64,000 bases of DNA from assembly GCA_038078555.1 (NCBI GenBank), contig JBBTYQ010000003.1:397-64396 (forward strand). Direction: 5' to 3'. Numbering within the stretch: position 1 is the stretch's first letter; the number at the start of each line of letters is the position of its first letter. This DNA comes from Patescibacteria group bacterium (GTDB lineage: Bacteria; Patescibacteriota; Minisyncoccia; UBA6257; UBA9933). Below, piece by piece: positions 22,291-45,249 of this stretch. Made by a program: the position numbers and the translations under genes. A model generated the notes under the pieces. It ran no database searches, had not been told where the DNA came from, and worked only from the letters and a program-made list of their open reading frames with translations.

Positions 22291-22291
22291 T

Positions 22292-29684: not shown

Positions 29685-29695
29685 CTTTAGCTTAA

Positions 29696-29823: not shown

Positions 29824-29847
29824 TAGCATTATTTGCGATTACTCTAA
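29824..29847 (+). promoter_or_regulatory. Conserved pre-ATG element, copy E1 (TAGCATTATTTGCGATTACTCTAA)
   Basis: It directly abuts the ATG of the response-regulator gene. Related copies abut the starts at 30777, 35683, 40492 and 44729. Confidence 0.5.
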
Positions 29848-30282: not shown

Positions 30283-30316
30283 TCGCAAATAATGCGAATT
30301 TAAAAAAATAAAAATA

Positions 30317-30727: not shown

Positions 30728-30754
30728 TTTATTCGCATTATTTAGAAATTTTAT

Positions 30755-30776
30755 TAGCATTATTCGCGATCACTCT
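30755..30776 (+). promoter_or_regulatory. Conserved pre-ATG element, copy E2 (TAGCATTATTCGCGATCACTCT)
   Basis: It directly abuts the ATG of the ABC ATPase gene. Confidence 0.5.
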
Positions 30777-32075
30777 ATGGAGTCTATTATAAAATTACAA
30801 AATGTAAATCTCTGGTATGACCGAGGCAAGCCCTCGGAAGTTTGGGCATTGAAAAATATTGATTTAGATATTAATCGGGGCGAGTATGTCGCTTTTTTCG
30901 GACCATCAGGTTGCGGAAAAACAACTTTGCTTTACACTATTGCCGGAATCGACCAGGTTAATGACGGAAAAATTTTGATTAATAACCGGGATATTTCTAA
31001 TTTTTCGCGGCGCGAACTGGCAATTTACAGGCAAATCGGGGTTGGCATAGTATTCCAACAATTTAACTTAATCCCCTCGCTTACGGTAATCAATAACGTT
31101 GCTTTGCCAATGGCATTTCTGGGCGTATCCGAAGAAAAAAGAAAATCCGAAGCAATGAAACTTTTAGAAAGACTGGATATAAAACATTTGGCTGAAAGAT
31201 ATCCTTATGAATTATCAGGCGGCCAACAGCAAAGAGTCGGCATTGCGAGAGCCCTAGCCAATAATCCGCCGATTATTGTCGCGGACGAACCTTTGGGAAA
31301 CCTCGATTCAGTTAACGCGCAAAAAGTTTTAGAATTTTTGAAAGAATTAAACGAAAAAGACGGCCGGACAATCATTATGGTAACGCACGAAGCCTGGAGT
31401 TTACGCGATGCCAAAAAAATTTTTTACATGAAAGACGGCACTATTTTGAAAACCGAGGAATCAAAGCCGAAAACCGTTGCCGAATCGGTATCCAAGCATC
31501 TTTATCAGGAACTTTCACAGCAAATGTCAGCTGCTGAAATCGCGGCCAGCGCGCTCGCCAATATGCTGCTGCGCGGATACTCAATTGACGAAGTAAAAAG
31601 ATTTGAATTTTTTTTAAAACAGCACTTGGAAAATAAAATCGATTCGGAGATTTTTCGAAACGTGCTTGACCGGCCGTTTGCCGAGGGCGGTATCGGCTTA
31701 TGGAAACAAAAAGCCAAAAAAATCGCCGATTACGTTAATGACGTAATTGAAGAAAGAAAAGAGGTGGATGAAGTTTATATGGAATTGGAAAAAAATCCAG
31801 AGTCTCCGCTCAAAGACGAAGTGGAAAAAATAAGAATGTGGCTGTTAAAAGATTACCGCGGAAAATTGTCGGAATTGCAAAAAATTCAGATGGAAGAAAT
31901 TATTTCCGAACGGCTCCGCTCTATTATCGGCGCACCTGATTTCTTGAAAACCGTCAGCTTATCCAAAAAACAATTCGGCATCGGCTTTTCTTACCGCACC
32001 AGCCAAAAAATTTCCGAAAAAATGGAAATGGTTTTGAAAAATAATAATAATTTAAATACTCTTAAAGCAGTATGA
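30777..32075 (+). CDS. ABC transporter ATP-binding protein (MacB/LolD-like) with about 200-aa C-terminal extension
   Basis: 432 aa with Walker A GPSGCGKTT, signature LSGGQQQR, and Walker B IIVADEP. The C-terminal half has no family I recognise. Confidence 0.9.
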   Translation: MESIIKLQNVNLWYDRGKPSEVWALKNIDLDINRGEYVAFFGPSGCGKTTLLYTIAGIDQVNDGKILINNRDISNFSRRELAIYRQIGVGIVFQQFNLIPSLTVINNVALPMAFLGVSEEKRKSEAMKLLERLDIKHLAERYPYELSGGQQQRVGIARALANNPPIIVADEPLGNLDSVNAQKVLEFLKELNEKDGRTIIMVTHEAWSLRDAKKIFYMKDGTILKTEESKPKTVAESVSKHLYQELSQQMSAAEIAASALANMLLRGYSIDEVKRFEFFLKQHLENKIDSEIFRNVLDRPFAEGGIGLWKQKAKKIADYVNDVIEERKEVDEVYMELEKNPESPLKDEVEKIRMWLLKDYRGKLSELQKIQMEEIISERLRSIIGAPDFLKTVSLSKKQFGIGFSYRTSQKISEKMEMVLKNNNNLNTLKAV

Positions 32076-33322
32076 GTTTAGATTTCAGCTCTAAATTAGG
32101 CCATGGCTTAAAATTAATCGACCTTTTAAAACTCTCCTTAAGAGTCTTTAAAACTAAACCCTTGCGGACAGGTTTGACGATTTTGGGCATGTCGTTCGGC
32201 ATCGGAACAGTTTTGTTTCTTGTTTCTCTGGGCTATGGATTGCAATACGTTCTTATAGGAAAATTGGTGGCAACTGAAGATTCTTTAATTTCCGTTGAAG
32301 CTTATTACCCATCTGAAGCAGAGCGCAATATCACCTATGAGGATTTAAAAATGATTTCAGAAATACCTGAAGCCGCAGAGATTTCTCCGGTAGCAGAATT
32401 TACCGGAGAAATAAAATATGAAAAATCCTCGGGCCTTATTATCGTCAAAATAATAAAGCCGAGTTATTTCCGATTATCAGGGCAACTTCCCGATCTGGGA
32501 ACAAGCTTCGCAAAGCTTGAACCGACAACGATTTTATCCAACTCCGCTCTTCAATTAACCGGTCTTTCAGCCGATTATTTAAATTTTACCAACGCAAAAT
32601 CTAATGCTGCTCCGAAATTTTCATTCAAAATATTTTATCAAAGCGAAGAAAAAATAGACGTTGAAGAAGCGGAAACAAAAGAACTGCTGACGCTTAAAGG
32701 AATAATGACCGATGAATTACAGCCGCCTTTTGCTTTTATTCCCGACGAATATATTTCCAAAAAACCGCCTTTTTTTAAAAAGGTTTTGGTTAAAGCCAAA
32801 GACATAAACAGCGTAGAAGGATTGCGCGATAAAATGATAGAAAAAGGTTTCCTTATTTCCGCCAGAATTGATTTAGTCAATCAAGCCGGAAAAGTAATGA
32901 ACATCATTACCATGGTTTTGGGCGTTTTCGGAGTTACGGCTTTAATCGTCGCCGCTGTTGGAATGTTCAACACAATGATTATCAGTTTTATGGAACGTAT
33001 TTTCGAAGTGGGTATTATTAAATCTCTGGGCGCAACCGATAAAGATGTAAGAAATTTATTTCTAATGGAATCTTTTGTAATGGGATTATTAGGAGGCGTT
33101 GGCGGGATAACTTTGGGAGTAGGCGCCGGAGAATTATCTAATTTAGGTTTAAATATTTTAGCTCAAAGATTCGGCGGCAAGCCATTTGATTTATTTATTA
33201 CGCCTTTATGGTTTGTCGGCTTGATTCTTGGCTCATCAAGCTTAATCGGATTGGTTTCCGGATTTTGGCCGGCCCGGCGCGCTTCTTATCTTTCTCCTAA
33301 AGAGGCGTTTATCAGGAAATAA
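32072..33322 (+). CDS. ABC transporter permease, FtsX/MacB type
   Basis: 416 aa with an N-terminal TM helix, a large extracytoplasmic domain and a C-terminal FtsX-type 3-TM bundle. It overlaps the ATPase gene by 4 nt. Confidence 0.88.
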   Translation: MSLDFSSKLGHGLKLIDLLKLSLRVFKTKPLRTGLTILGMSFGIGTVLFLVSLGYGLQYVLIGKLVATEDSLISVEAYYPSEAERNITYEDLKMISEIPEAAEISPVAEFTGEIKYEKSSGLIIVKIIKPSYFRLSGQLPDLGTSFAKLEPTTILSNSALQLTGLSADYLNFTNAKSNAAPKFSFKIFYQSEEKIDVEEAETKELLTLKGIMTDELQPPFAFIPDEYISKKPPFFKKVLVKAKDINSVEGLRDKMIEKGFLISARIDLVNQAGKVMNIITMVLGVFGVTALIVAAVGMFNTMIISFMERIFEVGIIKSLGATDKDVRNLFLMESFVMGLLGGVGGITLGVGAGELSNLGLNILAQRFGGKPFDLFITPLWFVGLILGSSSLIGLVSGFWPARRASYLSPKEAFIRK

Positions 33323-33407
33323 AACTGCAAAGACCTGCCACTATCTTTATAATTGTTATTTATATCAATGAGCCGATTCTTTGAAAATGCGCATAATTAT
33401 TGAATAA

Positions 33408-33445
33408 AAATCGGCTCATCGATCAATTCATAGATGAGCCGATTT
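33408..33445. terminator. 13-bp perfect hairpin made of TGAGCCGAT-family repeat copies
   Basis: AAATCGGCTCATC (33408-33420) pairs with GATGAGCCGATTT (33433-33445). It lies between the convergent ABC permease and GC-rich orphan genes. A further copy is at 33369-33378. Confidence 0.6.
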
Positions 33446-33583
33446 GGTGCAGTATTCTTGAATTAGTCCGAACGCATTTTTCCGGAAAATTCCCCCCGCG
33501 AAAATTCGGAAAGGCGGCGGAGCCGCACGAATGACAATTTCAAGTTTTTCTTTGACGGCAAATTCTTTGTTCTTTGAATTTAT

Positions 33584-33622
33584 AAAAAAGAAAAGGGACG
33601 GGGAGATTTCTCTACCCGTCCC
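33584..33622 (-). terminator. Rho-independent terminator of the GC-rich orphan gene
   Basis: The stem GGGACGGG / CCCGTCCC (33595-33602 / 33615-33622) is followed on the minus strand by TTTTCTTTTTT. Confidence 0.7.
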
Positions 33623-33662
33623 GATGTAGTGTTCAGCGAGGACATTTCGTCTACGCCGAAAC

Positions 33663-34298
33663 TTAAACGAACTTGGAAGCGAGAACCTGCCTCAACTCTC
33701 CGTAGGTCTCGATCTCCTTCGGGAACAGAACTCGCAGGTGGCAACCGCGGCATACGATTGCGTCGTGCGTCTTGGTGGCTCGCGTGCGATCTATCCAGCA
33801 GTTGCAGAAATCATGGATGCCCACGCAAGAACTAAGTTCGCGGTCATCTCTGGTGTGGTCCACGAAGTAATCGCCGGAAGGCGGGTACTCTCGCAGAAAA
33901 TCGCCATCAGAGGTCAACTGGATCGGCTTGAGCGGGACACTACGCTCGATCTCGTGCTGGATTGCCTTGATACGCTCTTGGCGATCTGTTTCTCTACTGG
34001 CGAAGTACAGAGCACGATTGAGCCATCCCGATGCGCGGTAGTGATCGTCGCCATCTCGGCTGATCACCTTGTAGGGGCAGTAGCCGTTGATTGGATAGGT
34101 TTCGCCTGTACTGCTCCCATCTTGGTCGCGATAGTGTCCGACGAGCTTTCCGGGGACAACCTTCGTTGGCTCGAATCCAGCGGCAAAGACGGTCGCGAAG
34201 AGAATCTGCACTTCATCGGCGGAAAGTTCCTTGACCTTGCTCCAGTCATGCTTGAGAGCCAAATTAACAAACGATGCAGCAATTTCGGTCGTTTTCAT
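33663..34298 (-). CDS. Orphan GC-rich hypothetical protein with C-terminal Cys/His cluster
   Basis: 211 aa. It has SD AAAGGAG 6 nt before the ATG and its own terminator. Sampled lines are 53-60% GC. The C-terminus reads CVGIHDFCNCW...VCRGCH. The overlapping plus-strand ORF has no start signals. Confidence 0.65.
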   Translation of the reverse strand: MKTTEIAASFVNLALKHDWSKVKELSADEVQILFATVFAAGFEPTKVVPGKLVGHYRDQDGSSTGETYPINGYCPYKVISRDGDDHYRASGWLNRALYFASRETDRQERIKAIQHEIERSVPLKPIQLTSDGDFLREYPPSGDYFVDHTRDDRELSSCVGIHDFCNCWIDRTRATKTHDAIVCRGCHLRVLFPKEIETYGELRQVLASKFV

Positions 34299-34525
34299 CA
34301 GTCGCTCCTTTCTTTTGTCAATGTGCTAACTAATTAATCAACAGTCTTGCATTAAACCCACAAAAAGTCAAGAAGCAGCAATTGCCGCTTCTTGGAAACA
34401 ATCTTATGAAAATTTTTCTTTTCTGCTTCTAACGGAATCGGGAATTTCTTTTTGCCCTGAAAAATCCGTACGATTTGGTCGCCGAGCGAAGCGAGGCGAC
34501 ATCTGAATCTTTGACATTTCCAATG

Positions 34526-34600
34526 TGGTGCGCCTTGTAGGGATCGAACCTACGGCCTTTCGAATGTGAATCGAACGCTCTACCACTGAGCTAAAGGCGC
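34526..34600 (-). tRNA. tRNA-Val(CAC), CCA encoded
   Basis: 75 nt with acceptor GCGCCTT/AAGGCGC, anticodon arm TTCGA-TTCACAT-TCGAA, and T arm GTAGG-TTCGATC-CCTAC. Confidence 0.92.
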
Positions 34601-34706
34601 ATAAAATTTGCAATAGAGTAAATGAAATATTTTACCGTCAAATTAACTATCTTTAAAAATTAATTATAAACAAAAAAGACGCCTTTTCAATCAGCGTCTT
34701 TTTTGT

Positions 34707-35072
34707 TTAAGCCAATTCCACGGTTGCTCCAACTTCCTCCAGTTTCTTTTTAAGCTCTTCTGCTTCTTCTTTTTTCAATCCTTGTTTTACCGGCTTAGGC
34801 GCGCCTTCAACTAAATCTTTAGCTTCTTTGAGCCCAAGGCCAGTGGCTTCCTTAACAGCTTTAATAACATTTATTTTCTGCTCTCCGACTGCTTTAAGAA
34901 CAACGTCATATGAAGTTTTTTCTTCAGCAGAAGCGGCAGCGGCTCCGGCTCCAGAAGCCATAGGCATAGCGGCAGAAACGCCGAATTTTTCTTCCAATGC
35001 TTTAATTAATTCTGCCAACTCCACCACGGTTAATTTTTCAATTTTTTCAATTATATCGTTAAATTTTTCCAT
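34707..35072 (-). CDS. rplL: Ribosomal protein L7/L12
   Basis: 121 aa with an Ala-rich hinge and the C-terminal domain ...[24 protein letters not shown]... Confidence 0.97.
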
Positions 35073-35179
35073 ATATATAATCCCAATCTACTAATTTATC
35101 CGAATGCTTCAAATCTTGCAAATATAAGTTTATTAATAAGATTTGTAAATTCGGATGTTATTTGTATATTTGGATTGCT

Positions 35180-35683
35180 TTATTTTTCGACCGTTTGTTT
35201 TGATTTTTGATCCAGCACATATAAAAACATCTTCATGGGCGCGGAAAGCATGCCAGCCAATTGAGCGAGCAATACTTCTCGGGAAGGCAATTGACCGATT
35301 TTTTTAACCATATCGCCATCGCAAAAATTCTTGGCCAATAAATCATAGGCGCCTAAAATCTTGAAATTTTTACTTTTGGTTTCTTTGGAAAACTTATAAA
35401 TAGGACCAGCAGCCTCGGAAATTTCGACAGGCGAAAATATCGCGCCAGCCTGTAAATCAAACTGTTCCGGAGTAAAATCATAACCGCTTTCATTCAAAAT
35501 TATCCTTAATAATCTTTTTTTAAAAACTTTCATTTTAGCTCCAAAATTAAGAAGCGCTATCCTTAATTTTTTCAAATCTTCAACAGTAGTTCCGCTAAAA
35601 TCAACAAAAAGCAAAACCTTGCTGTTTTTAAGCAATTTCTTTCCTTCTTCTATTTGCTGTTTTTTTTGCTCTTTTGTAAGCAT
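35180..35683 (-). CDS. rplJ: Ribosomal protein L10
   Basis: 167 aa with an L10-like N-terminus (LFVDFSGTTVEDLKKLR). It lies directly upstream of rplL. Confidence 0.93.
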   Translation of the reverse strand: MLTKEQKKQQIEEGKKLLKNSKVLLFVDFSGTTVEDLKKLRIALLNFGAKMKVFKKRLLRIILNESGYDFTPEQFDLQAGAIFSPVEISEAAGPIYKFSKETKSKNFKILGAYDLLAKNFCDGDMVKKIGQLPSREVLLAQLAGMLSAPMKMFLYVLDQKSKQTVEK

Positions 35684-35705
35684 ATAATGTTCGCGAATAA
35701 TGCTA
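35684..35705 (-). promoter_or_regulatory. Conserved pre-ATG element, copy E3 (TAGCATTATTCGCGAACATTAT)
   Basis: It directly abuts the rplJ ATG on the minus strand. Confidence 0.5.
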
Positions 35706-35928
35706 ATTTCAGCAATTAATTTTCGTTGTTAGCGATTACTTTAAATAAAAATGCGCCTATTTGCAGACGCACTTAAGAGAAACTAAATTTACCAGTTCCT
35801 CAACAGGATTTATCTCCGCTTTGCGGAGCACCTGTCTCCCGACGTTACGTCGGGAGATCCCTCGACGTAACGTCGGGAGATGGTCTGCGGAATTTTTATA
35901 ATATTATCAGACTGATTTAAAAAGTCAA
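35706..35928 (-). promoter_or_regulatory. Structured rplJ leader: promoter, twin GC hairpins, terminator-like hairpin
   Basis: TTGACT is at 35928-35923. Two near-identical hairpins lie at 35880-35858 and 35857-35835. A 7-bp stem plus T-run lies at 35771-35743. The 5' segment CCGCAGAC (35890-35883) can pair with the terminator strand GTCTGC. Confidence 0.5.
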
Positions 35929-35941
35929 TATCTTGGCCGAT

Positions 35942-36247
35942 TTAAACGCTTTTCGTAAAATCAACGCTCTCTTTTTTAAATCTCTCTACTTCACTTTTAA
36001 TAATTTCTTCAAGGTTAGCAACTTTTGCGCGCAAAAAATTCAATATTGCGGCTTCATCGTCAGATTTTTCTGCAAGTAATTTTTCAAGTTCATCCTTGTC
36101 TTTATCATTAAGCTCATCAAGCACTTTTATCAAAACTCCCTGGAAAATTATCCGTCCAATGCTCAAAAGCGCGCTTTCTTGCTCTTCTTGGGGCAAAGTA
36201 TCAAGCCCTATTTCTTTAATTAAATTTTGTTTTAAAATATTGTCCAT
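35942..36247 (-). CDS. Small acidic helical protein, unknown function (resembles a short CPR-restricted family)
   Basis: 101 aa, E/D/K/L-rich and all-helical in character. It is the last gene of a three-gene minus-strand unit. Confidence 0.6.
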   Translation of the reverse strand: MDNILKQNLIKEIGLDTLPQEEQESALLSIGRIIFQGVLIKVLDELNDKDKDELEKLLAEKSDDEAAILNFLRAKVANLEEIIKSEVERFKKESVDFTKSV

Positions 36248-36300
36248 TTTTTCTGTAATTTATCTTCAATTTATTTTCGACCTTGATAAATCATTGATAA

Positions 36301-39216
36301 TCAACGATTGCCGCTGATTTTGCTTTTTATTATCTGCTCAATCGTAAAAAATCCTTTATCGCTTTCAGAAATCCCCAAAGAATTTATTATTTCCGCCAAA
36401 TTCTCATAATGCTTTTGTTTGCCCCAAGATAACCAGCTGCCCTTATTTTCCTCTAAAAATTTATCTACCTTGATTCCCTTAATCGCTTCATATTCATTGC
36501 CAGTTAGGCCTATTTTTCTTTCCAAAAACCCGAGATAAGCAGAATAAATTTGTCGGCTGTCTTCAAATTTTCTATTGCTCATCAGAGCATCTCTTATGTC
36601 TTTTAACCTATCTATTTCTTCCTCACTGCCAAGACCATTAGCTAAATTACCTTCCATGGCTTCAATGTCAGAATTATAAAGATTGACCAGTCTTTCTTTT
36701 TCCGCCAAATTCTGATTATTGAAATTTTCCAAGATTTTATCTAGGTTTTTTTCATTACTGATTTCCGTTACTTCTGATATTTCCGGCTTTTTCCAAACAT
36801 AAGTCGATTCTCCCGCGTCTTTAATGTTAATTTCATTATTATCGCCAAGCAAAACCTCCACTCCCGGCTTTGCGATTCTTATTTCCGTTCCATCGACTTT
36901 AATATAACCCTGTTCAACAAGAAGCTGATTGGTTTGGCGATTTAAAACACTTTTTATTTTTTCGGCATTCGTCAGATCTTCCTGACTTAAACCGAATTTT
37001 TTAGGATCATCATAAAGCCGGTCTTCTAACTGCCGATAAACCGCATGCCAAACGCCCTCGCCCTGCTTAATGGTCGCCAAATCTGCTTGATGTCCGGCTC
37101 TTATTTCTGCCGAAATTTCTGCAACTTTGGTTTTGACGTCTGGGCTATAAGCTTCAGATAAAGGATGTTCAATTTCTACTCCAGATTCTACTTCGGGTTT
37201 TTTCCCCAGCAACCACTCTCCGGCAGTTAACTTAATCGAAGGCATTGCCTGCTCAAGCATATTCAAACCAATTGACGCGCCAGCGCCTGAAGCAATCATA
37301 GCTGCGGCTTTAATAATAAGTTTTTTTCTCTGTGCTCCGACTGATTCTTCTAATATCTTATGGTAATCATTTTCAACTTCAGCTAATTTTTCTACCGAGA
37401 ATCCGGTTTTTAATTTGGAAATCGCTTTTTCTTTGTCAAAAGAGCCAAGTTTTGAATAAATCCAATCAACACCTTTGCCGACATACTGGCCAATGCCGAC
37501 TGACAAAGCTCCTTTAACATATCTTTGTCCGGCAAACATAAGCGCAGCAGCCGGAACAGCAGAAAATCCGCCTGAAAGCGCCACAGCACCGGTAACCAAA
37601 GCAGTGGAAATTGCAATTCTGGTGTACTTGCCTTGATTCAAATACCAGTCCAGCATATTTCTGGCAATATTCTTTTCTTTGGGCGGAAATTGTTCAATCT
37701 GCTCTTTTTGCAAAACCAAGTTTTCATTAACCACTAATTCTTTAAAAACTGGCCACTTTTCGTATCTTTCCAATATTTTTGACAATTTTTCGCCGGAAAC
37801 TCCTTTTCCCTCTAATCTTTGTTTTGCATTAGAAAGCAACTCTCTGCCGTACTTAATTTTTGATTCATCGTATTCCTCTTTCGATTGGCGCATTTTCAGT
37901 AATAAATCACTAATCCCAACACCTTCTTTTTTTGCTTCTTTTAATTTTTTATAAACCTCGAGATAAGCCGCTCTTTTTTCATTGACTAAGAAATTTTCCG
38001 CCTTTTTTTCTTTTTTATTTGCGCCTTCGGGGCTTTCAAAAAGCCCGTCTATTTCACTATCATCTAATGTAGCCGCTCTTGGCGCTTCCTTGGATTCTTC
38101 TGATGGTTCGAATATGACTTTTGGCTTGATTTTTTCTTTAATTTCTTCTCCGACTTCACCAATAACTTCAGCTTCTGGTAAGTCCTCTTCTCTGACTTCT
38201 CCAATCACTTCAGCTTCGGGCAAATCTTCTTCTCTGATTTCTTTTTCGGCAACAGAAGCCGGTTCAATAACTTTATTAATCCCGCTTTTTTCAATAACCG
38301 CGGATAGTTCTTCCGGCGCCTCGATAATTTTCGGCTTAACAGCCGTTTCTTTTTCTTTTTTTTCTGCCTTAATTTTTTCCTTTAATTCTATTTCGTCTCT
38401 CTTTTCTTTGGCTTTGTTAAATTCTTCCTGAAAAAAAGCGACTCTTTTTTCAAAATAATCTTTATTTTTATTCTTGCCGTTTTTTTGCGCTTCTTTAAGC
38501 TTTCTCTTGACTATCGCTAATTCATTGCCGAGCCTGTCTTTCTCCGAATAAACATAAGTTTTTTCTTTTTTTATTTTTGGTTTTTTATCAATTTTAACCG
38601 AAGATTTCTTTTTTAAATCTTTTTCTGATTTTTCGGAATTAGTTAATTGCTTTGATTCCAAATTTTCTTTTGTTTCTTCTATTTCTTCTTCTGCTTCCAG
38701 CGCGCCTTCTTCGATTTCAAATTGTTCTTGTTCCTCTTTTGATGAATTTTCTGCTTGAGCAATTGACTCTCCGGGCGCTTTAATTTTGATATCGCTTATT
38801 TTTTTATTATATGTCCCTTGCAACAACCCGCTGAATTTATTCCTTATTGATTTTACTTCTTTCAAAATATCGCCTTTAAATTCTCCGGCTTCAAAATTGT
38901 CTAATAATTGTTTCAGTTTTTGATCCAGCTTTACATAATATTTTCGGTCGCTTAACGTAAAAAAATTGCCGTCGCGCTCGTTTAAAACAATAAATTCGTC
39001 TTTTAAGCTGTCGATTTGGCTAAGTTGAAACTTTATTTTTGAAGATTCTTCGATTCCTTTTACTAATTCTTTTTTAGATGCCGCGGCACCCAAATCTTTT
39101 GGCTCTTTTTTTAATTCCGGCAATGACTTTTTAAAATCACGCAGAGCGTTTGATGTTTTTTCCAAGTCTTTTTCGGAAGCCTCTGCGCCGCCCAATTTAA
39201 ACTTTTCAGACCTCAT
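36301..39216 (-). CDS. Large coiled-coil membrane protein, unknown function
   Basis: 971 aa. The K/E-rich N-terminal half has the tandem repeat REEDLPEAEVIGEV x2. Hydrophobic Gly/Ala-rich helices lie around residues 530-650. The C-terminal domain of about 330 aa is unassigned. Confidence 0.7.
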   Translation of the reverse strand: MRSEKFKLGGAEASEKDLEKTSNALRDFKKSLPELKKEPKDLGAAASKKELVKGIEESSKIKFQLSQIDSLKDEFIVLNERDGNFFTLSDRKYYVKLDQKLKQLLDNFEAGEFKGDILKEVKSIRNKFSGLLQGTYNKKISDIKIKAPGESIAQAENSSKEEQEQFEIEEGALEAEEEIEETKENLESKQLTNSEKSEKDLKKKSSVKIDKKPKIKKEKTYVYSEKDRLGNELAIVKRKLKEAQKNGKNKNKDYFEKRVAFFQEEFNKAKEKRDEIELKEKIKAEKKEKETAVKPKIIEAPEELSAVIEKSGINKVIEPASVAEKEIREEDLPEAEVIGEVREEDLPEAEVIGEVGEEIKEKIKPKVIFEPSEESKEAPRAATLDDSEIDGLFESPEGANKKEKKAENFLVNEKRAAYLEVYKKLKEAKKEGVGISDLLLKMRQSKEEYDESKIKYGRELLSNAKQRLEGKGVSGEKLSKILERYEKWPVFKELVVNENLVLQKEQIEQFPPKEKNIARNMLDWYLNQGKYTRIAISTALVTGAVALSGGFSAVPAAALMFAGQRYVKGALSVGIGQYVGKGVDWIYSKLGSFDKEKAISKLKTGFSVEKLAEVENDYHKILEESVGAQRKKLIIKAAAMIASGAGASIGLNMLEQAMPSIKLTAGEWLLGKKPEVESGVEIEHPLSEAYSPDVKTKVAEISAEIRAGHQADLATIKQGEGVWHAVYRQLEDRLYDDPKKFGLSQEDLTNAEKIKSVLNRQTNQLLVEQGYIKVDGTEIRIAKPGVEVLLGDNNEINIKDAGESTYVWKKPEISEVTEISNEKNLDKILENFNNQNLAEKERLVNLYNSDIEAMEGNLANGLGSEEEIDRLKDIRDALMSNRKFEDSRQIYSAYLGFLERKIGLTGNEYEAIKGIKVDKFLEENKGSWLSWGKQKHYENLAEIINSLGISESDKGFFTIEQIIKSKISGNR

Positions 39217-39238
39217 AATTTATGAATAATTATTACTG

Positions 39239-40492
39239 CTATATTTCAAAATATCCTTTAACTAAATTCTTTCGTGAAATTTCTTCAAGTTTTTCTTTGC
39301 CAAAATATTCAATGAAAATTTTGTTCCATAATGATTCCTGGTGATGATATAAGTATTTTTCCAGTTCTTTTTCCCTGATTAAAGACATAATGGAATCAAC
39401 TAAATTGAAACTTACCAGAACTTCCACGCCGGTAGCGGTTTTAAAATAATCGCCTACCCAATCCAAGCCGCCCCAGAAATTAAAGTCAACAAAAACATCC
39501 TTAAAAATTTTATTAATATTGGTTAAGGCCTCCTCTGCCTGAACCCAATAAAGCGCCTCCGGAGAAACATGGGGCTCAAGCAATCGCCAGTCGTTTTCGT
39601 CGTATTTCGCCAAGTATCTTGGAAGAACCAGCCAGCGAAGCTTATCGGTTTCCGGAGGCCTTTTTTCAATGATTTCCACTTTCACAATGGAGCCTAAATT
39701 TTTTCCAAAATTTAACGGGTCATTGGCAAATTCCTTAAAAAGTTCGGAATAAGCCTTAACTTCATAAAAATAATGGAGCGCTAAAGAAAAAGCTCTGGTC
39801 ACTTCCCCGAGCATGCCCAGCTCAATGGGCACTACGAAAATAAACCCCAATTCTTTCAAGTGGGAAATGTTTTGATATCTTTTTTTCAAAAAAGACTGGG
39901 CAACTCCGACCCACTTTTGAGTTAAAGATTTTATTTCTATTTCCCTTTCTTCAAAATCGCTGGGAGTCAAACCATCGTATTGTTTGACAAAAACTTCATT
40001 AAACCATTTCGGGTCTTCAAACAAGCGAATGGCAGCGTAAATTTCAAAAATATGTTCCCGGTCAATTAATTCATTAACATCGCGATAACCAAGATAGCTA
40101 ATAACTTTTTGAGGCGGTTCTTTTTTAATTAAATCAACCGCTTTTTCTTTTTTTAAAAACAAACCTTTAAAAGGCGGCATTAATTGCCTGGTTTTTTCTA
40201 AAACTCCGTCAACGTCTTCTTTTAACATAAAAGACGGCTTGCCTAAGGCTTTAAACAATTGCAAATCATCTTGTCTGATTTTTTCTATTAAGGCGTTATA
40301 AATTTCTTCCGCTTTGATATTTTTATCCAGCTCTTTTAATTGAAGCCGATTTTTAATAAGAGCTTCGTTCTCTTCGATAATCTTGTCAAAAACATCGGTT
40401 TTACCGGTAAGCGCTTCGGCTTTATCTCTAATAACGGTAATGGTATTTTTATCAACCCTAAGAATTTTCGCAATTTTTTCTAAAGAAGTCAT
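39239..40492 (-). CDS. Hypothetical protein, 417 aa
   Basis: A long ORF with normal codon texture and no motif I recognise. It is preceded directly by pre-ATG element E4. Confidence 0.7.
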   Translation of the reverse strand: MTSLEKIAKILRVDKNTITVIRDKAEALTGKTDVFDKIIEENEALIKNRLQLKELDKNIKAEEIYNALIEKIRQDDLQLFKALGKPSFMLKEDVDGVLEKTRQLMPPFKGLFLKKEKAVDLIKKEPPQKVISYLGYRDVNELIDREHIFEIYAAIRLFEDPKWFNEVFVKQYDGLTPSDFEEREIEIKSLTQKWVGVAQSFLKKRYQNISHLKELGFIFVVPIELGMLGEVTRAFSLALHYFYEVKAYSELFKEFANDPLNFGKNLGSIVKVEIIEKRPPETDKLRWLVLPRYLAKYDENDWRLLEPHVSPEALYWVQAEEALTNINKIFKDVFVDFNFWGGLDWVGDYFKTATGVEVLVSFNLVDSIMSLIREKELEKYLYHHQESLWNKIFIEYFGKEKLEEISRKNLVKGYFEI

Positions 40493-40515
40493 AATAGTGT
40501 TCGCGAATAATGCTA
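40493..40515 (-). promoter_or_regulatory. Conserved pre-ATG element, copy E4 (TAGCATTATTCGCGAACACTATT)
   Basis: It directly abuts the ATG of the 417-aa gene on the minus strand. Confidence 0.5.
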
Positions 40516-40580
40516 ATCAACAGCAAATAATGCCGATGTATCTAACTCGCATTATTTAAAAAATTTTGCATTATTAGTAA

Positions 40581-41333
40581 TTACTCTTTTATTAACGGCA
40601 CAAAACTGAAACCAAAATACTCTTTTTGAGAATATTCATTTTTAGCCAGCTTGTCAATTACAACAATCGAATTATCAACCGGCGCGACTATTCGGCCGCC
40701 GATTTTTAATTGTTTTCGCCATTCGCCAGGCACATCGCCAGAACTAGCGGCTCCACAAATAATTTTATCATAAAACTCCGCAGGTTTATAGCCCTTAGAA
40801 CCATCTGCCAAAATAACGCTAGTGATGCCTTTTTCAATAAAATTATACTTTGAAACATTCTTCTCGGCCATTTCTTTAAGCTCGGGAATGCGCTCTATAG
40901 CTATTACTTTTGGCGCCGGTTTTTCAGAATTAACAGAATTTTCTGCTTCTGAAATATCGTTTTTTTCAAGGATATTTTTATCGCTATCCTTATCTGCCAA
41001 ATAAGATAAAATCGCCGTCTGCCAGCCGCTGCCTGCGCCAATTTCCAATATATGCTCTCCGGATTTAGGTCCTAAAAGCTCAATCATAAAAGCAACCGTT
41101 AAGGGTTGGGAAATGGTTTGGCCAAAACCGATGGGTAAAGGCGCATTAATATAAGCTTCGTTTTTATATTCTTCGGATACGAAATTAATTCTATCAACTG
41201 CCCTAAATGCTTCAATTATTTCCAGTGTTTTTAAATAACCATCCTGGATTAAAGAATCAATTAGATTTTCGTATTCCTGATTGACTATACTATTCATTAA
41301 TACTATAATAATATAAATTGACTTAATTGCCAA
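40581..41333 (-). CDS. pcm: Protein-L-isoaspartate O-methyltransferase with about 40-aa acidic insertion
   Basis: It has GFGQTISQPLTVAFMIELL and the SAM motif ILEIGAGSGWQTA. The likely start is ATG 41297 (MNSIVNQEY...) rather than 41333. Confidence 0.88.
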   Translation of the reverse strand: MAIKSIYIIIVLMNSIVNQEYENLIDSLIQDGYLKTLEIIEAFRAVDRINFVSEEYKNEAYINAPLPIGFGQTISQPLTVAFMIELLGPKSGEHILEIGAGSGWQTAILSYLADKDSDKNILEKNDISEAENSVNSEKPAPKVIAIERIPELKEMAEKNVSKYNFIEKGITSVILADGSKGYKPAEFYDKIICGAASSGDVPGEWRKQLKIGGRIVAPVDNSIVVIDKLAKNEYSQKEYFGFSFVPLIKE

Positions 41334-41369
41334 TTTTTTGAAATTTTAAAACTCAAAAAGGAGGTCTTA

Positions 41370-41525
41370 ATGAAAGAAAGGGAAGAAAAAAAACAATTTC
41401 TTAAGCCTGAATTGGAAAAAAATAAAATATTGCCCAGCGCCAATAAACCGCGAGATAATTTGTGCCATTTTAGCAACTGCGCCGAAAAAAAGTGCAAGAG
41501 GCTTAGAAACGAAGGAAATATCTAG
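41370..41525 (+). CDS. Small ORF (51 aa), basic, C-x4-C-x4-C
   Basis: It was not in the ORF track because it is under 60 aa. AGGAGG lies 5 nt before the ATG. It translates MKEREEKKQFLKPELEKNKILPSANKPRDNLCHFSNCAEKKCKRLRNEGNI. Confidence 0.45.
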   Translation: MKEREEKKQFLKPELEKNKILPSANKPRDNLCHFSNCAEKKCKRLRNEGNI

Positions 41526-41550
41526 AACCCAAACAAAAAGGAACAAGAAA

Positions 41551-41736
41551 ATGAATGATAAGAAAAATCTGCAAGGAAAAGATTGGACTATTAGATGGGA
41601 AAAAAGCAATAACGGCTCAGAAAAACACGACAGCGGAGAACAACACTGTTGTCAAGACGAAGCCATCAACATAGCCGATAAAATGCTTGCTAAGGGCTAC
41701 GGAATAACAATAATAAAAAGAAAGGAGAAAAAATAA
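41551..41736 (+). CDS. Small ORF (61 aa), unknown function
   Basis: It follows the 51-aa ORF after 25 nt, and a strong terminator follows directly. The antisense ORFs in this region are F/L-rich and look spurious. Confidence 0.5.
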   Translation: MNDKKNLQGKDWTIRWEKSNNGSEKHDSGEQHCCQDEAINIADKMLAKGYGITIIKRKEKK

Positions 41737-41754
41737 GAAAAAGGAATATCAAAA

Positions 41755-41790
41755 ACCCCTTGATGTAATCAAGGGGTTTTATTTATTTTA
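41755..41790 (+). terminator. Rho-independent terminator
   Basis: A 10-bp stem (ACCCCTTGAT / ATCAAGGGGT) with loop GTA is followed by TTTTATTTATTTT. Confidence 0.8.
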
Positions 41791-41831
41791 AAATTTGCTA
41801 GAAAACCAAAAAAATTATTTTTCGCGTTTTG

Positions 41832-41902
41832 CGGGCCCACGAGGATTTGAACCTCGATCAACGGTTTTGGAGACCGTCATTCTGCCATTGAACTATAGGC
41901 CC
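41832..41902 (-). tRNA. tRNA-Trp(CCA)
   Basis: 71 nt with acceptor GGGCCTA/TGGGCCC, anticodon arm ACGGT-CTCCAAA-ACCGT, and T arm CGAGG-TTCAAAT-CCTCG. Confidence 0.9.
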
Positions 41903-41948
41903 ATTTAAAAATTCCAAATATTTTATATTCGGGATTTTTATAAAGAAA

Positions 41949-42116
41949 TTATACCTTGGCCTGTTTATGGGTTGTGCGCTTCTTGCACCACTTGCAATAC
42001 TTTTGATATTCCAACTTCCGCTCTAAAGATTTTTTCTTGCGCGTATAATAATTATTTCTCTTGCAAATTGTACATTTAAGCTTTATTAAATTTTCTGAAA
42101 ATTTTGATTTAGCCAT
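41949..42116 (-). CDS. rpmG: Ribosomal protein L33
   Basis: MAKSKFSENLIKLKCTICKRNNYYTRKKKSLERKLEYQKYCKWCKKRTTHKQAKV (55 aa with a CxxC...CxxC pattern). The ORF-track extension to 42176 reads through a structured non-coding element. Confidence 0.93.
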   Translation of the reverse strand: MAKSKFSENLIKLKCTICKRNNYYTRKKKSLERKLEYQKYCKWCKKRTTHKQAKV

Positions 42117-42142
42117 AATCGTTGAAACTTTAAACAATTCCA

Positions 42143-42220
42143 CCCCCGCGCCTATAAACTGCATAAAACTATGCAATTAAATGGCTTGCGCCATTCCTCA
42201 CGCGCTCATAGGCACAGGGG
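42143..42220 (-). ncRNA. Candidate structured RNA (three-way junction) upstream of rpmG
   Basis: P1 has 13 bp (42220-42208 with 42155-42143) and is complete only on the minus-strand RNA, through two G-U pairs. P2 is ATGGC-GCAA-GCCAT with a GNRA loop. P3 is TGCATA-GTTT-TATGCA. Confidence 0.4.
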
Positions 42221-42286
42221 TTTATTTTATTTTAAACATTAATATTAAAAAAACAATAGCTGATAATTAAATATAACTACATTTTG

Positions 42287-42358
42287 AGCCGATGGGGAGA
42301 ATCGAACTCCCGACCTCTTTCTTACCATGAAAGCGTTCTGCCACTGAACTACATCGGC
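42287..42358 (-). tRNA. tRNA-Thr(GGU)
   Basis: 72 nt with acceptor GCCGATG/CATCGGC, anticodon arm CTTTC-ATGGTAA-GAAAG, and T arm GGGAG-TTCGATT-CTCCC. Confidence 0.92.
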
Positions 42359-42363
42359 ATAAA

Positions 42364-42394
42364 TGGTGGCGTTCTGCCACTAAACTACTCTGGC
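42364..42394 (-). pseudogene. tRNA-Thr(GGU)-like 5' fragment ending in CCACCA
   Basis: GCCAGAGTAGTTTAGTGGCAGAACGCCACCA contains an acceptor 5' strand and a D arm that closely match tRNA-Thr(GGU). It then jumps directly to a CCA-like end. Confidence 0.55.
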
Positions 42395-42405
42395 ATCTAA
42401 CCGGG

Positions 42406-42586
42406 AGCCGGAGAGAGGAGTCGAACCTCCAACCGAAGTTTACCCCGTTAGATATGCCGATAAGCCGGCGGAGGGATTCGAACCCACGACCTACGGTTTA
42501 CAAAACCGTTGCTCTGCCCCTGAGCTACGCCGGCATATCTAACGGGGCTTCGCAAAAGCATTGCTCTACCATTGAGCTACCCCGGC
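42406..42586 (-). other. Interrupted tRNA-like gene (anticodon-loop UGC) whose halves flank tRNA-Thr(UGU)
   Basis: The 5' part (42586-42548) and the T arm plus acceptor 3' strand (42430-42406) have acceptor strands that pair 7/7. They are separated by 117 nt containing a 13-bp inverted repeat and a complete tRNA. Confidence 0.55.
42463..42534 (-). tRNA. tRNA-Thr(UGU)
   Basis: 72 nt with acceptor GCCGGCG/CGCCGGC and anticodon arm ACGGT-TTTGTAA-ACCGT. The T arm GTGGG-TTCGAAT-CCCTC has one U-U mismatch. Confidence 0.88.
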
Positions 42587-42599
42587 AACGCAAACAATC

Positions 42600-43715
42600 T
42601 TAACTTTTTTTTATTAATTCTTCAAGCTCTTCCAGCATTATTTTAGGTTCGCCTTTGCTAAAATATTCTCTGGCAGGATTTAATAATTCAATCAAATATT
42701 CGGCTACAAATTTTTTAAGGTCTTCTGGATGAAGTCCGCCACTTTTAAAAATTTTTTCCAATTCTTCAATCGAAAAAATTTCAAGATTTCCGCCGTGCTC
42801 CGCCTTCCGAGAAATTGTGATTTTATTTTCCCGGCTGAAAATTAAATATCTCGCCCAATCAATAATAGGATTAAATTCAATATCTTTCTCCGGACAATAA
42901 GCTTTTTTAATTTTTCTCAAAATATCTTCTTCGCTATCGTGAATAAAAATCGCGCTGTCCGGCTTAGATTTAGACATTTTCATCGATGTTTGCAAATCTT
43001 CGCCTGAAGCGCCGTTATTCGGCTTATTTAGCCCCAAGAGCAGATGATGATGCACTGCCACCGGTTTTATAATCTTATCGCCGATTTTAAGCGGAGAAAA
43101 TTTCAATTGGTTTGCGACATCGCGTGCTATAACGTTGGCTTTTCGCTGGTCAAGACCGGCATGAGAAAAATTAAAGCCGCCGGCAAAAATATCTGCCACC
43201 TGCATTGCCGGATAAAGAAGTTTGGCAAAATCAACTTCTATCCCCTCGCGCCTGCCCATAATCGTTATGCTTCTTTGCATTCTTGCCAAACTCGTATTTT
43301 TGCTGACATCAATCAAGGTTTGCCAGTATAAATCGTTATTATGATAAAAATCCGAAGCTAAAATGAAATTTAAATCATTAGGATTGCCGCCTAAACATTT
43401 ATAAGAAATTTTTAAGCCTTCTTCAAAATAACCAACCGCTGTTTTTTTTATCGCGTCGAGATTGCCGCCCAGCTTATCATTTATCCAGGTATGATAATCT
43501 GCCAAAAAAATATGCGTTTTAACTCCGGCATCGAAAAAATCTTTAACTTTTTGCATGCAAATCAATCCGGTGCCTAAATGAATTTTTCCGGAAATCTCTA
43601 AGCCGATATAATGCTTTAAAGGAGTATTTTGAGAAAACAAAAACTCCAGCTCATCGCTTTCAATAACCTCCTCGGTTAAACGGGATATTAAATTGATTTT
43701 TTCTTTTATATCCAT
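42600..43715 (-). CDS. tyrS: Tyrosyl-tRNA synthetase, archaeal/eukaryal type (no S4-like C-terminal domain)
   Basis: 371 aa. It has YIGLEISGKIHLGT (HIGH region), KMSKS, YPAMQVADI, KIKKAYCPEKDIEFNPI and GGLHPEDLKKFVAEYLIELLNP. These blocks closely parallel the Methanocaldococcus jannaschii TyrRS sequence as I remember it. Confidence 0.85.
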   Translation of the reverse strand: MDIKEKINLISRLTEEVIESDELEFLFSQNTPLKHYIGLEISGKIHLGTGLICMQKVKDFFDAGVKTHIFLADYHTWINDKLGGNLDAIKKTAVGYFEEGLKISYKCLGGNPNDLNFILASDFYHNNDLYWQTLIDVSKNTSLARMQRSITIMGRREGIEVDFAKLLYPAMQVADIFAGGFNFSHAGLDQRKANVIARDVANQLKFSPLKIGDKIIKPVAVHHHLLLGLNKPNNGASGEDLQTSMKMSKSKPDSAIFIHDSEEDILRKIKKAYCPEKDIEFNPIIDWARYLIFSRENKITISRKAEHGGNLEIFSIEELEKIFKSGGLHPEDLKKFVAEYLIELLNPAREYFSKGEPKIMLEELEELIKKS

Positions 43716-43756
43716 ATATTTATAAAAATCTTAGCAGATTCTAGGCTTAGGAGCAA

Positions 43757-43792
43757 ACAAAAATCCCCCAAAGTGAGGGGGGATTTTTATTT
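43757..43792. terminator. Bidirectional hairpin between tRNA-Tyr and tyrS
   Basis: A 9-bp stem (AAATCCCCC / GGGGGATTT) with an 8-nt loop is flanked by an A-run and a T-run. Confidence 0.65.
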
Positions 43793-43824
43793 TGTGCCAT
43801 TTTACTAATTTGCCCTTTAAGATG

Positions 43825-43908
43825 TCCAGGGGGCAGGATTTGAACCTGCGAAGGGACATGCCCGCGGGTTTTACAGACCCGTGTAATTGACCGCTCTACC
43901 ACCCCTGG
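43825..43908 (-). tRNA. tRNA-Tyr(GUA) with C1:G72 and long variable arm
   Basis: 84 nt with acceptor CCAGGGG/CCCCTGG, discriminator A, anticodon arm CGGGT-CTGTAAA-ACCCG, a 15-nt variable region CGGGCATGTCCCTTC, and T arm GCAGG-TTCAAAT-CCTGC. Confidence 0.85.
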
Positions 43909-43931: not shown

Positions 43932-44303
43932 TTATATTAAATATTTTTGATATTTTTCATCTTCTAATGATATTACATTCCTTGCGCTTATTTCTTGCCA
44001 TTTTATTAAATAACAACGATTATCAGCGGTATAAATAAATAAATAATCAAAATCGTCATCTCTATATTTTTTAGCATAATTAAAACTTTGATTACCTCCA
44101 GTAATTCTAAGATTGGCGCAATGTGCTCCTCGACTACTTTTACCTGCAAATTTTATTTGTACTTTATTTAATTTTTTACCATCATCAAATACTAAATCAT
44201 ATCGCTTTCTATCTCCTAAGGGAAGTAAAACTTCATAGCCAAACGCTGTTAATTTAGCAATACATTGAGAAACGGCTAATGATCCTTTGTCTTTACTATT
44301 CAT
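43932..44303 (-). CDS. PD-(D/E)XK endonuclease-like protein (intron-associated-type small nuclease family)
   Basis: 123 aa. It has KGSLAVSQCIAKLTAFGYEVLLPLGDRKRYDLVFDDGKKLNKVQIK, the GD...D-x-V...Q-x-K pattern of this family. Confidence 0.7.
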   Translation of the reverse strand: MNSKDKGSLAVSQCIAKLTAFGYEVLLPLGDRKRYDLVFDDGKKLNKVQIKFAGKSSRGAHCANLRITGGNQSFNYAKKYRDDDFDYLFIYTADNRCYLIKWQEISARNVISLEDEKYQKYLI

Positions 44304-44378: not shown

Positions 44379-44729
44379 TTAATTTTCTGGAGTTTTGTCA
44401 GTTTCACTTTGTTCCTCGATATTATCAAATAAAGCAGGTTTCTCGCCATTGCCGTTGGTTTTTTTTACTTTTTTAAGATGGTGAGTTACCAAATTATCCC
44501 ACTTCATCAATATAAGCTTGATTTTTCTTAAAGCTTTTTCCAGCTGAGTGCTTAAAGTAACATCCAACCTTTCAAGCGGCAAAAAGGAAATCAATTTATC
44601 GATTTTGGCATAAGGCGTCCTTTCAAAGTCTTCTCTGATATCGCTAACTCTGGGCACTGCCCGGGCAATTAAATAAATCATCGCTCCGAGGCTAAACATT
44701 ATAATGGTTTGAAGAATAAAGTTATACAT
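44379..44729 (-). CDS. Small single-pass membrane protein, unknown function
   Basis: 116 aa with one N-terminal TM helix and a charged C-terminal tail. It is preceded by pre-ATG element E5. Confidence 0.55.
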   Translation of the reverse strand: MYNFILQTIIMFSLGAMIYLIARAVPRVSDIREDFERTPYAKIDKLISFLPLERLDVTLSTQLEKALRKIKLILMKWDNLVTHHLKKVKKTNGNGEKPALFDNIEEQSETDKTPEN

Positions 44730-44808: not shown

Positions 44809-45249
44809 CTATATTTCGTATCGGCAAAATCTTTCCACTTTGATATTTTCACCCAGTTTGGCGACTGTTTGTTTTATTAAGGATTCAATATTTAATGATT
44901 CGTCTTTGACATAATTTTGAGCCAATAATTCCTCGCTGTCCTTTGGATTCATTGCGGCAACATGCATTGCCAGATTATGGGCAAGTTCCTTAAATACGGG
45001 ATTGCGCGCCACAAAATCAGTTTCACATCTAAGCTCAAGCAATACGCCGACTCTTTCGTTGTGGATATAAGACTGCAAAAGTCCGGCGCCGGTAGCCCGC
45101 TCGCTCTTTTTTTCAGCTTTAACTAAACCTCTTTCGTGAATGATAGTTATGGCTTTTTCAAGGTCGCCGCCTGCGTCTTCAAGCGCTTTTTTGCACTCCA
45201 TCACGCCGGCGCTCGTAATATCCCTAAGTTTTTGAACTTGCTCTTTCAT
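44809..45249 (-). CDS. tsf: Elongation factor Ts, minimal form
   Basis: 146 aa with the UBA-like N-terminus [26 protein letters not shown] and the core TDFVARN. TATAAT at 45258-45263 lies 8 nt before the ATG. Confidence 0.9.

Follow-up and report, generated by a model that had tools for sequence, protein, structure and literature searches.

An archaeal-type tyrosyl-tRNA synthetase beside a tRNA-Tyr with a bacterial body and an inverted first base pair in a Patescibacteria genome

How does a bacterium come to carry a tyrosyl-tRNA synthetase (TyrRS) of the archaeal kind beside a tRNA-Tyr whose variable arm looks bacterial and whose first base pair looks archaeal? The question is raised by a locus in a 64,000-nucleotide stretch of DNA from a Patescibacteria group bacterium (GenBank assembly GCA_038078555.1, contig JBBTYQ010000003.1, positions 397 to 64,396 of the forward strand), which we call the window and in whose coordinates all positions are given. 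A sequence-only reading of this stretch had proposed that an archaeal/eukaryal-type TyrRS lies next to a tRNA-Tyr(GUA) joining a C1:G72 pair to a bacterial class II variable arm, and that the enzyme and its identity pair had been co-acquired or had co-evolved. Our analysis bears out the proposed enzyme and tRNA, and it points to replacement of the bacterial enzyme, with the resident tRNA retuned to suit its successor, as the very probable origin of the pair. The features on which the argument turns are the following, all on the reverse strand.

42600..43715, (-) strand: tyrS, predicted archaeal-type (Pyrococcus/DPANN-like) TyrRS; ATG start, 371 aa, no S4-like domain
43825..43908, (-) strand: tRNA-Tyr(GUA), positions 1-73 (ARAGORN and Rfam RF00005); C1 at 43908, G72 at 43826, A73 at 43825
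43872..43874, (-) strand: anticodon GUA (ARAGORN, anticodon at position 35)
43850..43864, (-) strand: variable region CGGGCAUGUCCCUUC, 15 nt, with a 3-bp GGG/CCC stem and a 5-nt loop; bacterial class II variable arm (ARAGORN bracket string)

Family and conserved residues of the synthetase

All of the sequence blocks that had been quoted for an archaeal/eukaryal-type enzyme, namely YIGLEISGKIHLGT, KMSKS, YPAMQVADI, KIKKAYCPEKDIEFNPI and GGLHPEDLKKFVAEYLIELLNP, are present in the translation of the open reading frame (ORF) at 42600..43715(-), and profile searches agree with the assignment. Against NF006330, the NCBIfam equivalog for archaeal-type tyrosine--tRNA ligase (PRK08560), the protein scores 411.2 bits over residues 1-360, with a cut-off of 220 bits, whereas the bacterial tyrS model TIGR00234 gives 97.8 bits, under its cut-off of 113.8, and the models for tryptophanyl-tRNA synthetase (TrpRS) all stay under cut-off as well (94.4 versus 176.75). 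The sole Pfam match is tRNA-synt_1b (PF00579, the class Ic catalytic family) at residues 30-345, with 26 residues after it; an S4 domain was sought in the 371-aa protein with Pfam and not found, as expected from the claim that the enzyme lacks the S4-like C-terminal domain of bacterial TyrRS.

The top matches among solved structures are all archaeal or eukaryal TyrRSs. Pyrococcus horikoshii TyrRS comes first (2cyc, E=1.5e-123, ~54% identity), followed by 7fg6 and Aeropyrum pernix TyrRS (2cya), and then by eukaryotic parasite enzymes and that of Methanocaldococcus jannaschii (the latter at E=2.9e-42 and 36-40% identity); bacterial TyrRS 1h3e matches at just 1.6e-5, and this match is confined to the N-terminal half. 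The sequence-only reading had likened the protein to the M. jannaschii enzyme, and the key residues do align with it, but the closest solved relative is that of P. horikoshii instead.

The class I motifs are present as IHLGT at residues 44-48, the variant also found in P. horikoshii, and KMSKS at 246-250. In pairwise alignment the tyrosine-pocket residues Tyr32, Gln155 and Asp158 of M. jannaschii TyrRS fall on Tyr36, Gln172 and Asp175, and His283 and Asp286 of its anticodon-binding domain fall on His329 and Asp332. M. jannaschii TyrRS reads C1 through Arg174 and, via water, through Arg132, and reads G72 through Lys175 (Tsunoda et al. 2007, PMC1934993); these three residues correspond in pairwise alignment to Arg148 (Arg132), Arg191 (Arg174) and Lys192 (Lys175) of the window protein. 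All eight positions (Y36, R148, Q172, D175, R191, K192, H329 and D332) are invariant in 27/27 homologs labelled bacterial.

The sole systematic difference between bacterial-labelled and archaeal homologs lies at the site equivalent to M. jannaschii Phe261, which is His in 19 of the 27 bacterial-labelled sequences and Phe in 31 of the 32 archaeal ones. Phe261 of the M. jannaschii enzyme stacks on G34, and the His may reflect an adjustment to the anticodon loop of bacterial tRNAs or to the modifications that this loop carries. In the window TyrRS the equivalent site is residue 307, with its codon at ~42795..42797.

A protein identical to the window TyrRS is annotated in a Patescibacteria metagenome-assembled genome. 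Its further relatives are found in Candidatus Wolfebacteria (77-83% identity) and, at 55-64% identity, in Woesearchaeota and Pacearchaeota. A rough neighbour-joining tree, made without support values and rooted arbitrarily on M. jannaschii, places the window TyrRS within a Patescibacteria clade, beside a group in which P. horikoshii and DPANN archaea stand together with a few further sequences from the candidate phyla radiation (CPR). Judged by profile, structure match and alignment, the classification of this ORF as an archaeal/eukaryal-type TyrRS, and neither as a bacterial TyrRS nor as a TrpRS, is well supported.

Fold and identity elements of tRNA-Tyr

ARAGORN and Rfam (RF00005, 56 bits against a cut-off of 29) agree on the fold of tRNA-Tyr and place its boundaries at 43824/5..43908(-). 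The gene therefore sits just upstream of tyrS, as had been noticed, with 109 nt between it and the tyrS start. Its acceptor, CCAGGGG/CCCCUGG, gives C1:G72 with A73 as the discriminator. The T arm is GCAGG-UUCAAAU-CCUGC, the D stem has 4 bp with a long D loop, the anticodon stem is CGGGU/ACCCG and the CCA end is not encoded. Among the seven tRNA genes of the window, that of tRNA-Val(CAC) alone has an encoded CCA end.

An assignment of C1:G72 depends on where the tRNA is taken to begin. We therefore turned to an alignment of 17 tRNA-Tyr genes with a long variable (V) arm that adjoin homologous tyrS genes. With the cloverleaf set to C1:G72, 99.3% of cells pair, and two-sided changes occur in 14 of 24 pairs; when the register is shifted by 1-3 nt, pairing falls to <=55%. 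The C1 register is thus not arbitrary. Both C1:G72 and C2:G71 are invariant in the 17 homologous tRNAs, and near the 5' end of the window tRNA-Tyr there is no alternative G able to give G1:C72. The acceptor, first pair and discriminator stand as originally read.

The variable arm is similarly well defined. Its 3-bp stem is paired in 17/17 homologs, with compensatory GC<->CG changes in two of them (L002 and L013; loci of our survey are given by L numbers), so that the 15-nt bacterial class II arm also stands. Within the genome-derived set, a V region of 12-16 nt is kept in 17 C1:G72 tRNAs (the window and 16 loci), and one of just 4-5 nt is found in 8 other C1:G72 tRNAs. The D arm of the window tRNA, UGGUAGAGCGGUCAAUUAC, is of the class II kind; with its GAGCGG(U/C)CAA motif, we take it to be like that of Escherichia coli tyrT and unlike that of M. 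jannaschii tRNA-Tyr.

The identity rule for archaeal and eukaryal tRNA-Tyr is C1:G72 together with A73 (PMC9976931). The window tRNA-Tyr has both, with a long arm in place of the short (4-5 nt) class I variable loop of those tRNAs. From bacterial class II tRNA-Tyr it has the stemmed long variable arm and the class II D arm, with C1:G72 in place of G1:C72. These features support the view that it is a hybrid, with a bacterial class II body carrying a first pair of the archaeal form.

Co-variation of the first pair with tyrS

The association of the first pair with the type of synthetase, suggested at first by this one locus, holds across a survey of 166 records, which comprise 58 loci from genomes, 107 from metagenomes and the window itself. 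In loci with an archaeal-type tyrS, tRNA-Tyr has C1:G72 and A73 in 28/28 cases; in related tRNA clusters without one, which were retrieved in a metagenome contig scan run for another purpose, it has G1:C72 and A73 in 23/23. These counts stand after the mending of three 1-nt ARAGORN mis-registers, recognized by eye behind the odd T:A first pairs of L028, L127 and L134, and after the settling of L081. The latter had looked like an exception, with a G1:C72 tRNA-Tyr beside a tblastn match to 'archaeal TyrRS'; the neighbour is a bacterial TrpRS (TIGR00233, 226.9 bits).

The position of tyrS is equally constant. In the window and its close relatives the cluster runs tRNA-Tyr, tyrS, tRNA-Thr(UGU), tRNA-Thr(GGU), rpmG, tRNA-Trp, and the same synteny is found in >15 independent assemblies. 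In relatives without tyrS, tRNA-Thr(UGU) comes straight after tRNA-Tyr, which means that the foreign tyrS lies exactly beside the gene of its substrate. The flanking genes mark the window contig as bacterial: they encode uS2 (rpsB), a short elongation factor Ts (EF-Ts; tsf), a PD-(D/E)XK endonuclease, bL33 (rpmG) and a PCMT methyltransferase.

Origin of the pair

The reading that we favour, with high confidence, is a functional replacement, in which the archaeal-type TyrRS charges a resident bacterial tRNA-Tyr adapted to it by inversion of the 1:72 pair. In the host, a Patescibacteria bacterium related to Wolfebacteria, the two would make up a tyrosine-charging system. The enzyme, a class Ic TyrRS of the long Pyrococcus/DPANN kind and by homology a putative homodimer, would form Tyr-AMP using Tyr36, Gln172 and Asp175, would read the top of the acceptor (C1:G72 and A73) through Arg148, Arg191 and Lys192, and would read G34 through its C-terminal domain (His329 and Asp332). 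A bacterial class II tRNA-Tyr would have flipped from G1:C72 to C1:G72, letting the foreign enzyme charge it, with the D and V arms carried over. From the residues and pairs described above we infer that the enzyme charges the window tRNA-Tyr and requires C1:G72, and that it took the place of the bacterial TyrRS instead of adding to it. Because it has no S4-like domain, this TyrRS would not hold the variable arm, which is presumably no longer needed for charging.

Several points weigh against this account. A search of the literature available to us turned up no aminoacylation data for any CPR pair. The loci without tyrS come from short metagenome fragments, and absence from a fragment is not absence from a genome; moreover, the surveyed loci are phylogenetically related, so that the split of 28/0 versus 0/23 does not count independent events. 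The type of tRNA, with a long or a short V arm, also disagrees with the TyrRS tree. Of the eight short-V tRNAs, six (in L008, L011, L014, L015, L024 and L049) still have a class II-like D arm. These six form one sequence family, those of L008 and L014 being ~90% identical, and yet the L008 TyrRS is 85-87% identical to the TyrRSs of the long-V loci L004-L006 and only 72% identical to that of L014. The tRNA and tyrS have therefore not simply co-diverged: either the tRNA-Tyr allele was swapped without tyrS, or loss of the V arm occurred in parallel, and an enzyme with no need of the V arm would fit independent exchange as well as parallel loss. Where the arm is retained, the compensatory changes in its stem indicate that it is still under structural selection, which suggests that it matters for something that the replacement model leaves unexplained. 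Finally, the part of the genome examined is 64 kb, and a bacterial TyrRS/tRNA-Tyr pair could sit elsewhere.

This last point leaves some room for the alternative that survives best, in which the window holds an auxiliary pair, serving for example in stress or antibiotic resistance, while a canonical bacterial TyrRS and its G1:C72 tRNA-Tyr are encoded at another place in the genome. A like coexistence has been described for TrpRS-A in one Beckwithbacteria genome, but CPR genomes are small, and the same study describes their TyrRS as replaced (Mukai et al., PMC5370408). We regard an auxiliary pair as improbable. The sole tRNA-Tyr in the window has C1:G72, and it fills the ancestral slot of the cluster, which in L078, L100 and L107 holds a G1:C72 tRNA; the resident gene was thus converted, not duplicated.

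Replacement with in-place adaptation must also be set against a joint import, in which tRNA and enzyme arrived together from an archaeon, already matched to each other. At least 28 loci have the two genes side by side, and the acceptor of many relatives, CCGGCGG/CCGCCGG, is what we take to be that of M. jannaschii tRNA-Tyr. Even so, an import of this kind seems to us very improbable, since both the D arm, UGGUAGAGCGGUCAAUUAC, and the V arm belong to the bacterial class II type. In L102, the G1:C72 tRNA-Tyr has a V arm and matches the window tRNA-Tyr exactly in its D arm, and the G1:C72 tRNA-Tyr of L078 shares this D arm too, which argues that a resident bacterial tRNA flipped its first pair in place and was not imported. 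The archaeal loci with the closest TyrRSs mostly have no tRNA-Tyr nearby, and the exception, in L047, belongs to class I and differs in its D arm. Of the two origins that the sequence-only reading had offered, co-evolution therefore fits better and co-acquisition less well, given the D arm shared with L102 and L078.

An artefact, with an archaeal gene mis-assembled or mis-binned into a bacterial contig or a TrpRS taken for a TyrRS, has a negligible chance of being the explanation: CPR and DPANN organisms do co-occur and their bins are at times cross-contaminated, but tyrS lies on a single contig between bacterial tRNAs and rpsB, tsf and rpmG, its synteny recurs in those >15 independent assemblies, the TrpRS models fall under cut-off and the tyrosine-binding Tyr and Asp are present.

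Neighbouring genes and nested tRNAs

The surroundings of the pair hold further features of interest, beginning with the genes of the cluster itself.

42463..42534, (-) strand: tRNA-Thr(UGU), the next gene after tyrS in the conserved cluster (ARAGORN and Rfam)
42286..42358, (-) strand: tRNA-Thr(GGU) (ARAGORN and Rfam)
41831..41902, (-) strand: tRNA-Trp(CCA), G73 (ARAGORN and Rfam); bacterial Trp identity kept
43759..43788, (-) strand: terminator-like hairpin and T run, AAAAAUCCCCCCUCACUUUGGGGGAUUUUU, between tRNA-Tyr and tyrS; not conserved
43932..44303, (-) strand: free-standing PD-(D/E)XK endonuclease, I-Ssp6803I-like, 123 aa, 23 nt upstream of tRNA-Tyr (PF11645 2.4e-21, PDB 2ost 1.1e-11)

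As tRNA-Trp keeps the bacterial G73, this genome has adopted the archaeal rule for the Tyr identity only. The distance from tRNA-Tyr to tyrS varies between 13 and 109 nt in relatives, so the hairpin between them is not a conserved regulatory leader; a T-box or attenuator was considered at this place and rejected, since the Rfam matches to Phe_leader (25.8 bits) and rimP (25.3 bits) are far under their thresholds and the terminator hairpin explains both. Further upstream, the EF-Ts gene (44809..45249(-)) is very short, at 146 aa, and Pfam EF_TS covers just profile positions 1-76 of 204; the ORF after it (44379..44729) has no family match and is unlike the missing part of EF-Ts.

Directly downstream of tyrS, the tRNA-Thr(UGU) gene at 42463..42534 sits within a second, tRNA-Thr-derived gene that spans 42406..42586(-). 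The parts of this nested arrangement are as follows.

42553..42586, (-) strand: 5' part of the outer tRNA-Thr, GCCGGGGUAGCUCAAUGGUAGAGCAAUGCUUUUG, with the acceptor strand, D arm, and anticodon stem and loop up to position 35
42535..42552, (-) strand: stretch of 18 nt, the last 13 nt of which form the 5' arm of a helix (5' arm at 42535..42547)
42443..42455, (-) strand: 3' arm of the helix, 13 nt, beginning 7 nt after the inner tRNA-Thr(UGU)
42406..42442, (-) strand: 3' part of the outer tRNA-Thr, UAAACUUCGGUUGGAGGUUCGACUCCUCUCUCCGGCU, with UAAA followed by the T arm, acceptor strand and U73

The ends of the outer gene match ordinary tRNA-Thr(UGU/CGU) genes of relatives almost base for base. 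The gene is broken between anticodon positions 35 and 36, and the inner tRNA is enclosed by a perfect helix of 13 bp, formed by 42535..42547 and 42443..42455. Both this long helix and the acceptor stem of the outer gene are predicted by RNAfold (z = -3.45). In the window the anticodon stem of the outer gene has decayed, and the outer tRNA-Thr is therefore probably not a decoding tRNA. Neither ARAGORN nor Rfam calls it, and the intron option of ARAGORN reports the inner genes only.

This layout recurs in other Patescibacteria contigs (L001, L002, L012, L014, L091/L151, L134, L152 and L157), and nesting is also seen for Thr(GGU) in L004, Thr(CGU) in L064/L139, Trp(CCA) in L078/L107 and Val(GAC) in L102. 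The break falls at 35/36 both in nested Thr(UGU) and in Trp (L078 and L107). Removing the insert and a second hairpin from L152 in silico restores a perfect tRNA-Thr(UGU). The sequences of the bracketing arms vary among loci, with pairing always kept; the window arm CCCCGUUAGAU flanks tRNA-Val(GAC) in L102 too, and in L092 one arm pair flanks Val(UAC) as well as Ser(UGA). GC-rich hairpins are inserted in the D or T loops of the outer genes in L004, L012, L014 and L152. In the literature searched we found no descriptions of nested tRNA genes.

Known element types were considered for these inserts and set aside. A multicopy miniature inverted-repeat transposable element does not suit arms with just two copies in 64 kb. 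On inspection, the unpaired stretches face each other and are not staggered by 4 bp as in an archaeal bulge-helix-bulge intron. As for a group I intron, the insert has ~105 nt and is mainly a tRNA; the Patescibacteria tRNA introns treated in PMC13011429 are full ribozymes.

Other irregularities are found in the same clusters. Immediately upstream of the real tRNA-Thr(GGU), at 42359..42394(-), lies a fragment of 36 nt, GCCAGAGUAGUUUAGUGGCAGAACGCCACCAUUUAU, from the 5' part of a gene like tRNA-Thr(GGU). In L002, L003, L005, L006, L008 and L057, Thr(GGU) is likewise preceded by a 5'-half leader (GCCGAUGUAGCUCAGCGGCAGAGGGCGAAGCCC...); some of these leaders are perfect tandem duplicates, for which assembly artefacts are possible. 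A match to YrlA (Y RNA-like) at 42351..42460(-) was rejected, at 24 bits against a cut-off of 69: it consists of tRNA-like fragments in permuted order, including 42359..42394. At 271..420 of L102, between the G1:C72 tRNA-Tyr and tRNA-Thr(UGU), a long inverted repeat (CCAGGCAGUGAAAACUCGAU ... AUCGAGUUUCUACUGCCUGG) surrounds ~110 nt of AT-rich sequence, which makes a further insertion of the hairpin type in this tRNA cluster. In L004 a different nuclease-like ORF, with a weak NUMOD3 motif under cut-off, lies between two tRNA-Thr genes.

The endonuclease gene next to tRNA-Tyr has homologs of 74-77% identity immediately upstream of tRNA-Tyr in L005, L078, L100 and L107, in genomes with G1:C72 and with C1:G72 alike. 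I-Ssp6803I is the homing endonuclease of a cyanobacterial tRNA-fMet intron. A strict linkage between PDDEXK_5 genes and nested tRNAs is not supported, as several nested loci are without the gene in the stretch fetched.

It is conceivable, though we consider it unlikely, that the cluster is a site of a hitherto undescribed form of turnover, where complete, helix-bracketed tRNA genes insert at position 35/36 of residents of the same specificity, which then decay, with I-Ssp6803I-like endonucleases as the driving force, and where the unit of C1:G72 tRNA-Tyr and archaeal tyrS, as well as tRNA-Tyr alleles, spread likewise. Replacement of tRNA genes driven by an endonuclease is speculation. If true, however, such machinery, spreading tRNA-Tyr alleles between Patescibacteria, would explain why the type of tRNA disagrees with the TyrRS tree.

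Comparison with known systems

The pair described here is already known from the work of Mukai, Reynolds, Crnkovic and Söll (Life 2017;7:8, PMC5370408), who described archaea/eukarya-type TyrRS with C1-G72 tRNA-Tyr in CPR bacteria (Parcubacteria), and the window adds a further genome to the clade they described. That study counts Wolfebacteria as a major group and infers a lateral transfer with DPANN archaea as the source; it also notes that the V arm present in many of these tRNAs marks them as descendants of bacterial tRNA-Tyr (PMC5370408). The window has the features that define this hybrid Tyr identity in CPR bacteria, namely a bacterial context, homologs of 77-100% identity in Patescibacteria and Wolfebacteria, and a C1-G72 tRNA with a V arm; it is the same phenomenon in the same group, with no essential difference. 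Later biochemical work on CPR TyrRS/tRNA-Tyr pairs was not found in the literature searched.

Our analysis adds to the 2017 description in several ways. First, it documents the constant position of tyrS after tRNA-Tyr and the 28/28 versus 23/23 association between tyrS and the first pair. Second, it brings in a relative that has G1:C72 and yet an identical D arm, compensatory changes within the stem of the V arm, and the discordance between tRNA type and TyrRS tree. The identical D arm points to a flip in place within a resident bacterial tRNA gene. The V arm is under structural selection where it is kept and has been lost altogether elsewhere, and tRNA-Tyr alleles appear to move independently of tyrS.

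More broadly, the locus would be a natural case of a tRNA identity rule crossing between domains, in which an archaeal synthetase was swapped in and one tRNA base pair retuned. Such cases bear on how fixed identity sets are and offer natural starting points for orthogonal pairs, a significance that was already drawn in 2017.

Three better-studied systems frame the comparison. The TyrRSs of P. horikoshii and DPANN archaea are the closest, at ~54% and 55-64% identity over the full length; they share with the window enzyme a size of ~375 aa, the HLGT and KMSKS motifs, and the residues that read acceptor and anticodon. In contrast to them, the window enzyme has a bacterial host and a partner tRNA with a V arm, and in the bacterial-labelled set the Phe261-equivalent is often His. 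The M. jannaschii pair, the standard orthogonal pair for genetic-code expansion, likewise lacks an S4 domain, and its residues for reading C1:G72 and A73 are conserved in the window protein; it differs in having a minimal enzyme of 306 aa, at 36-40% identity, and a tRNA of class I, whose variable loop is short. With the bacterial TyrRS/tRNA-Tyr pair, represented by Thermus thermophilus (1h3e), the resemblance lies on the side of the tRNA, which has the same class II D arm, long V arm, A73 and GUA anticodon, whereas the window enzyme falls under the TIGR00234 cut-off and has no S4 domain, and the 1:72 pair of its tRNA is inverted.

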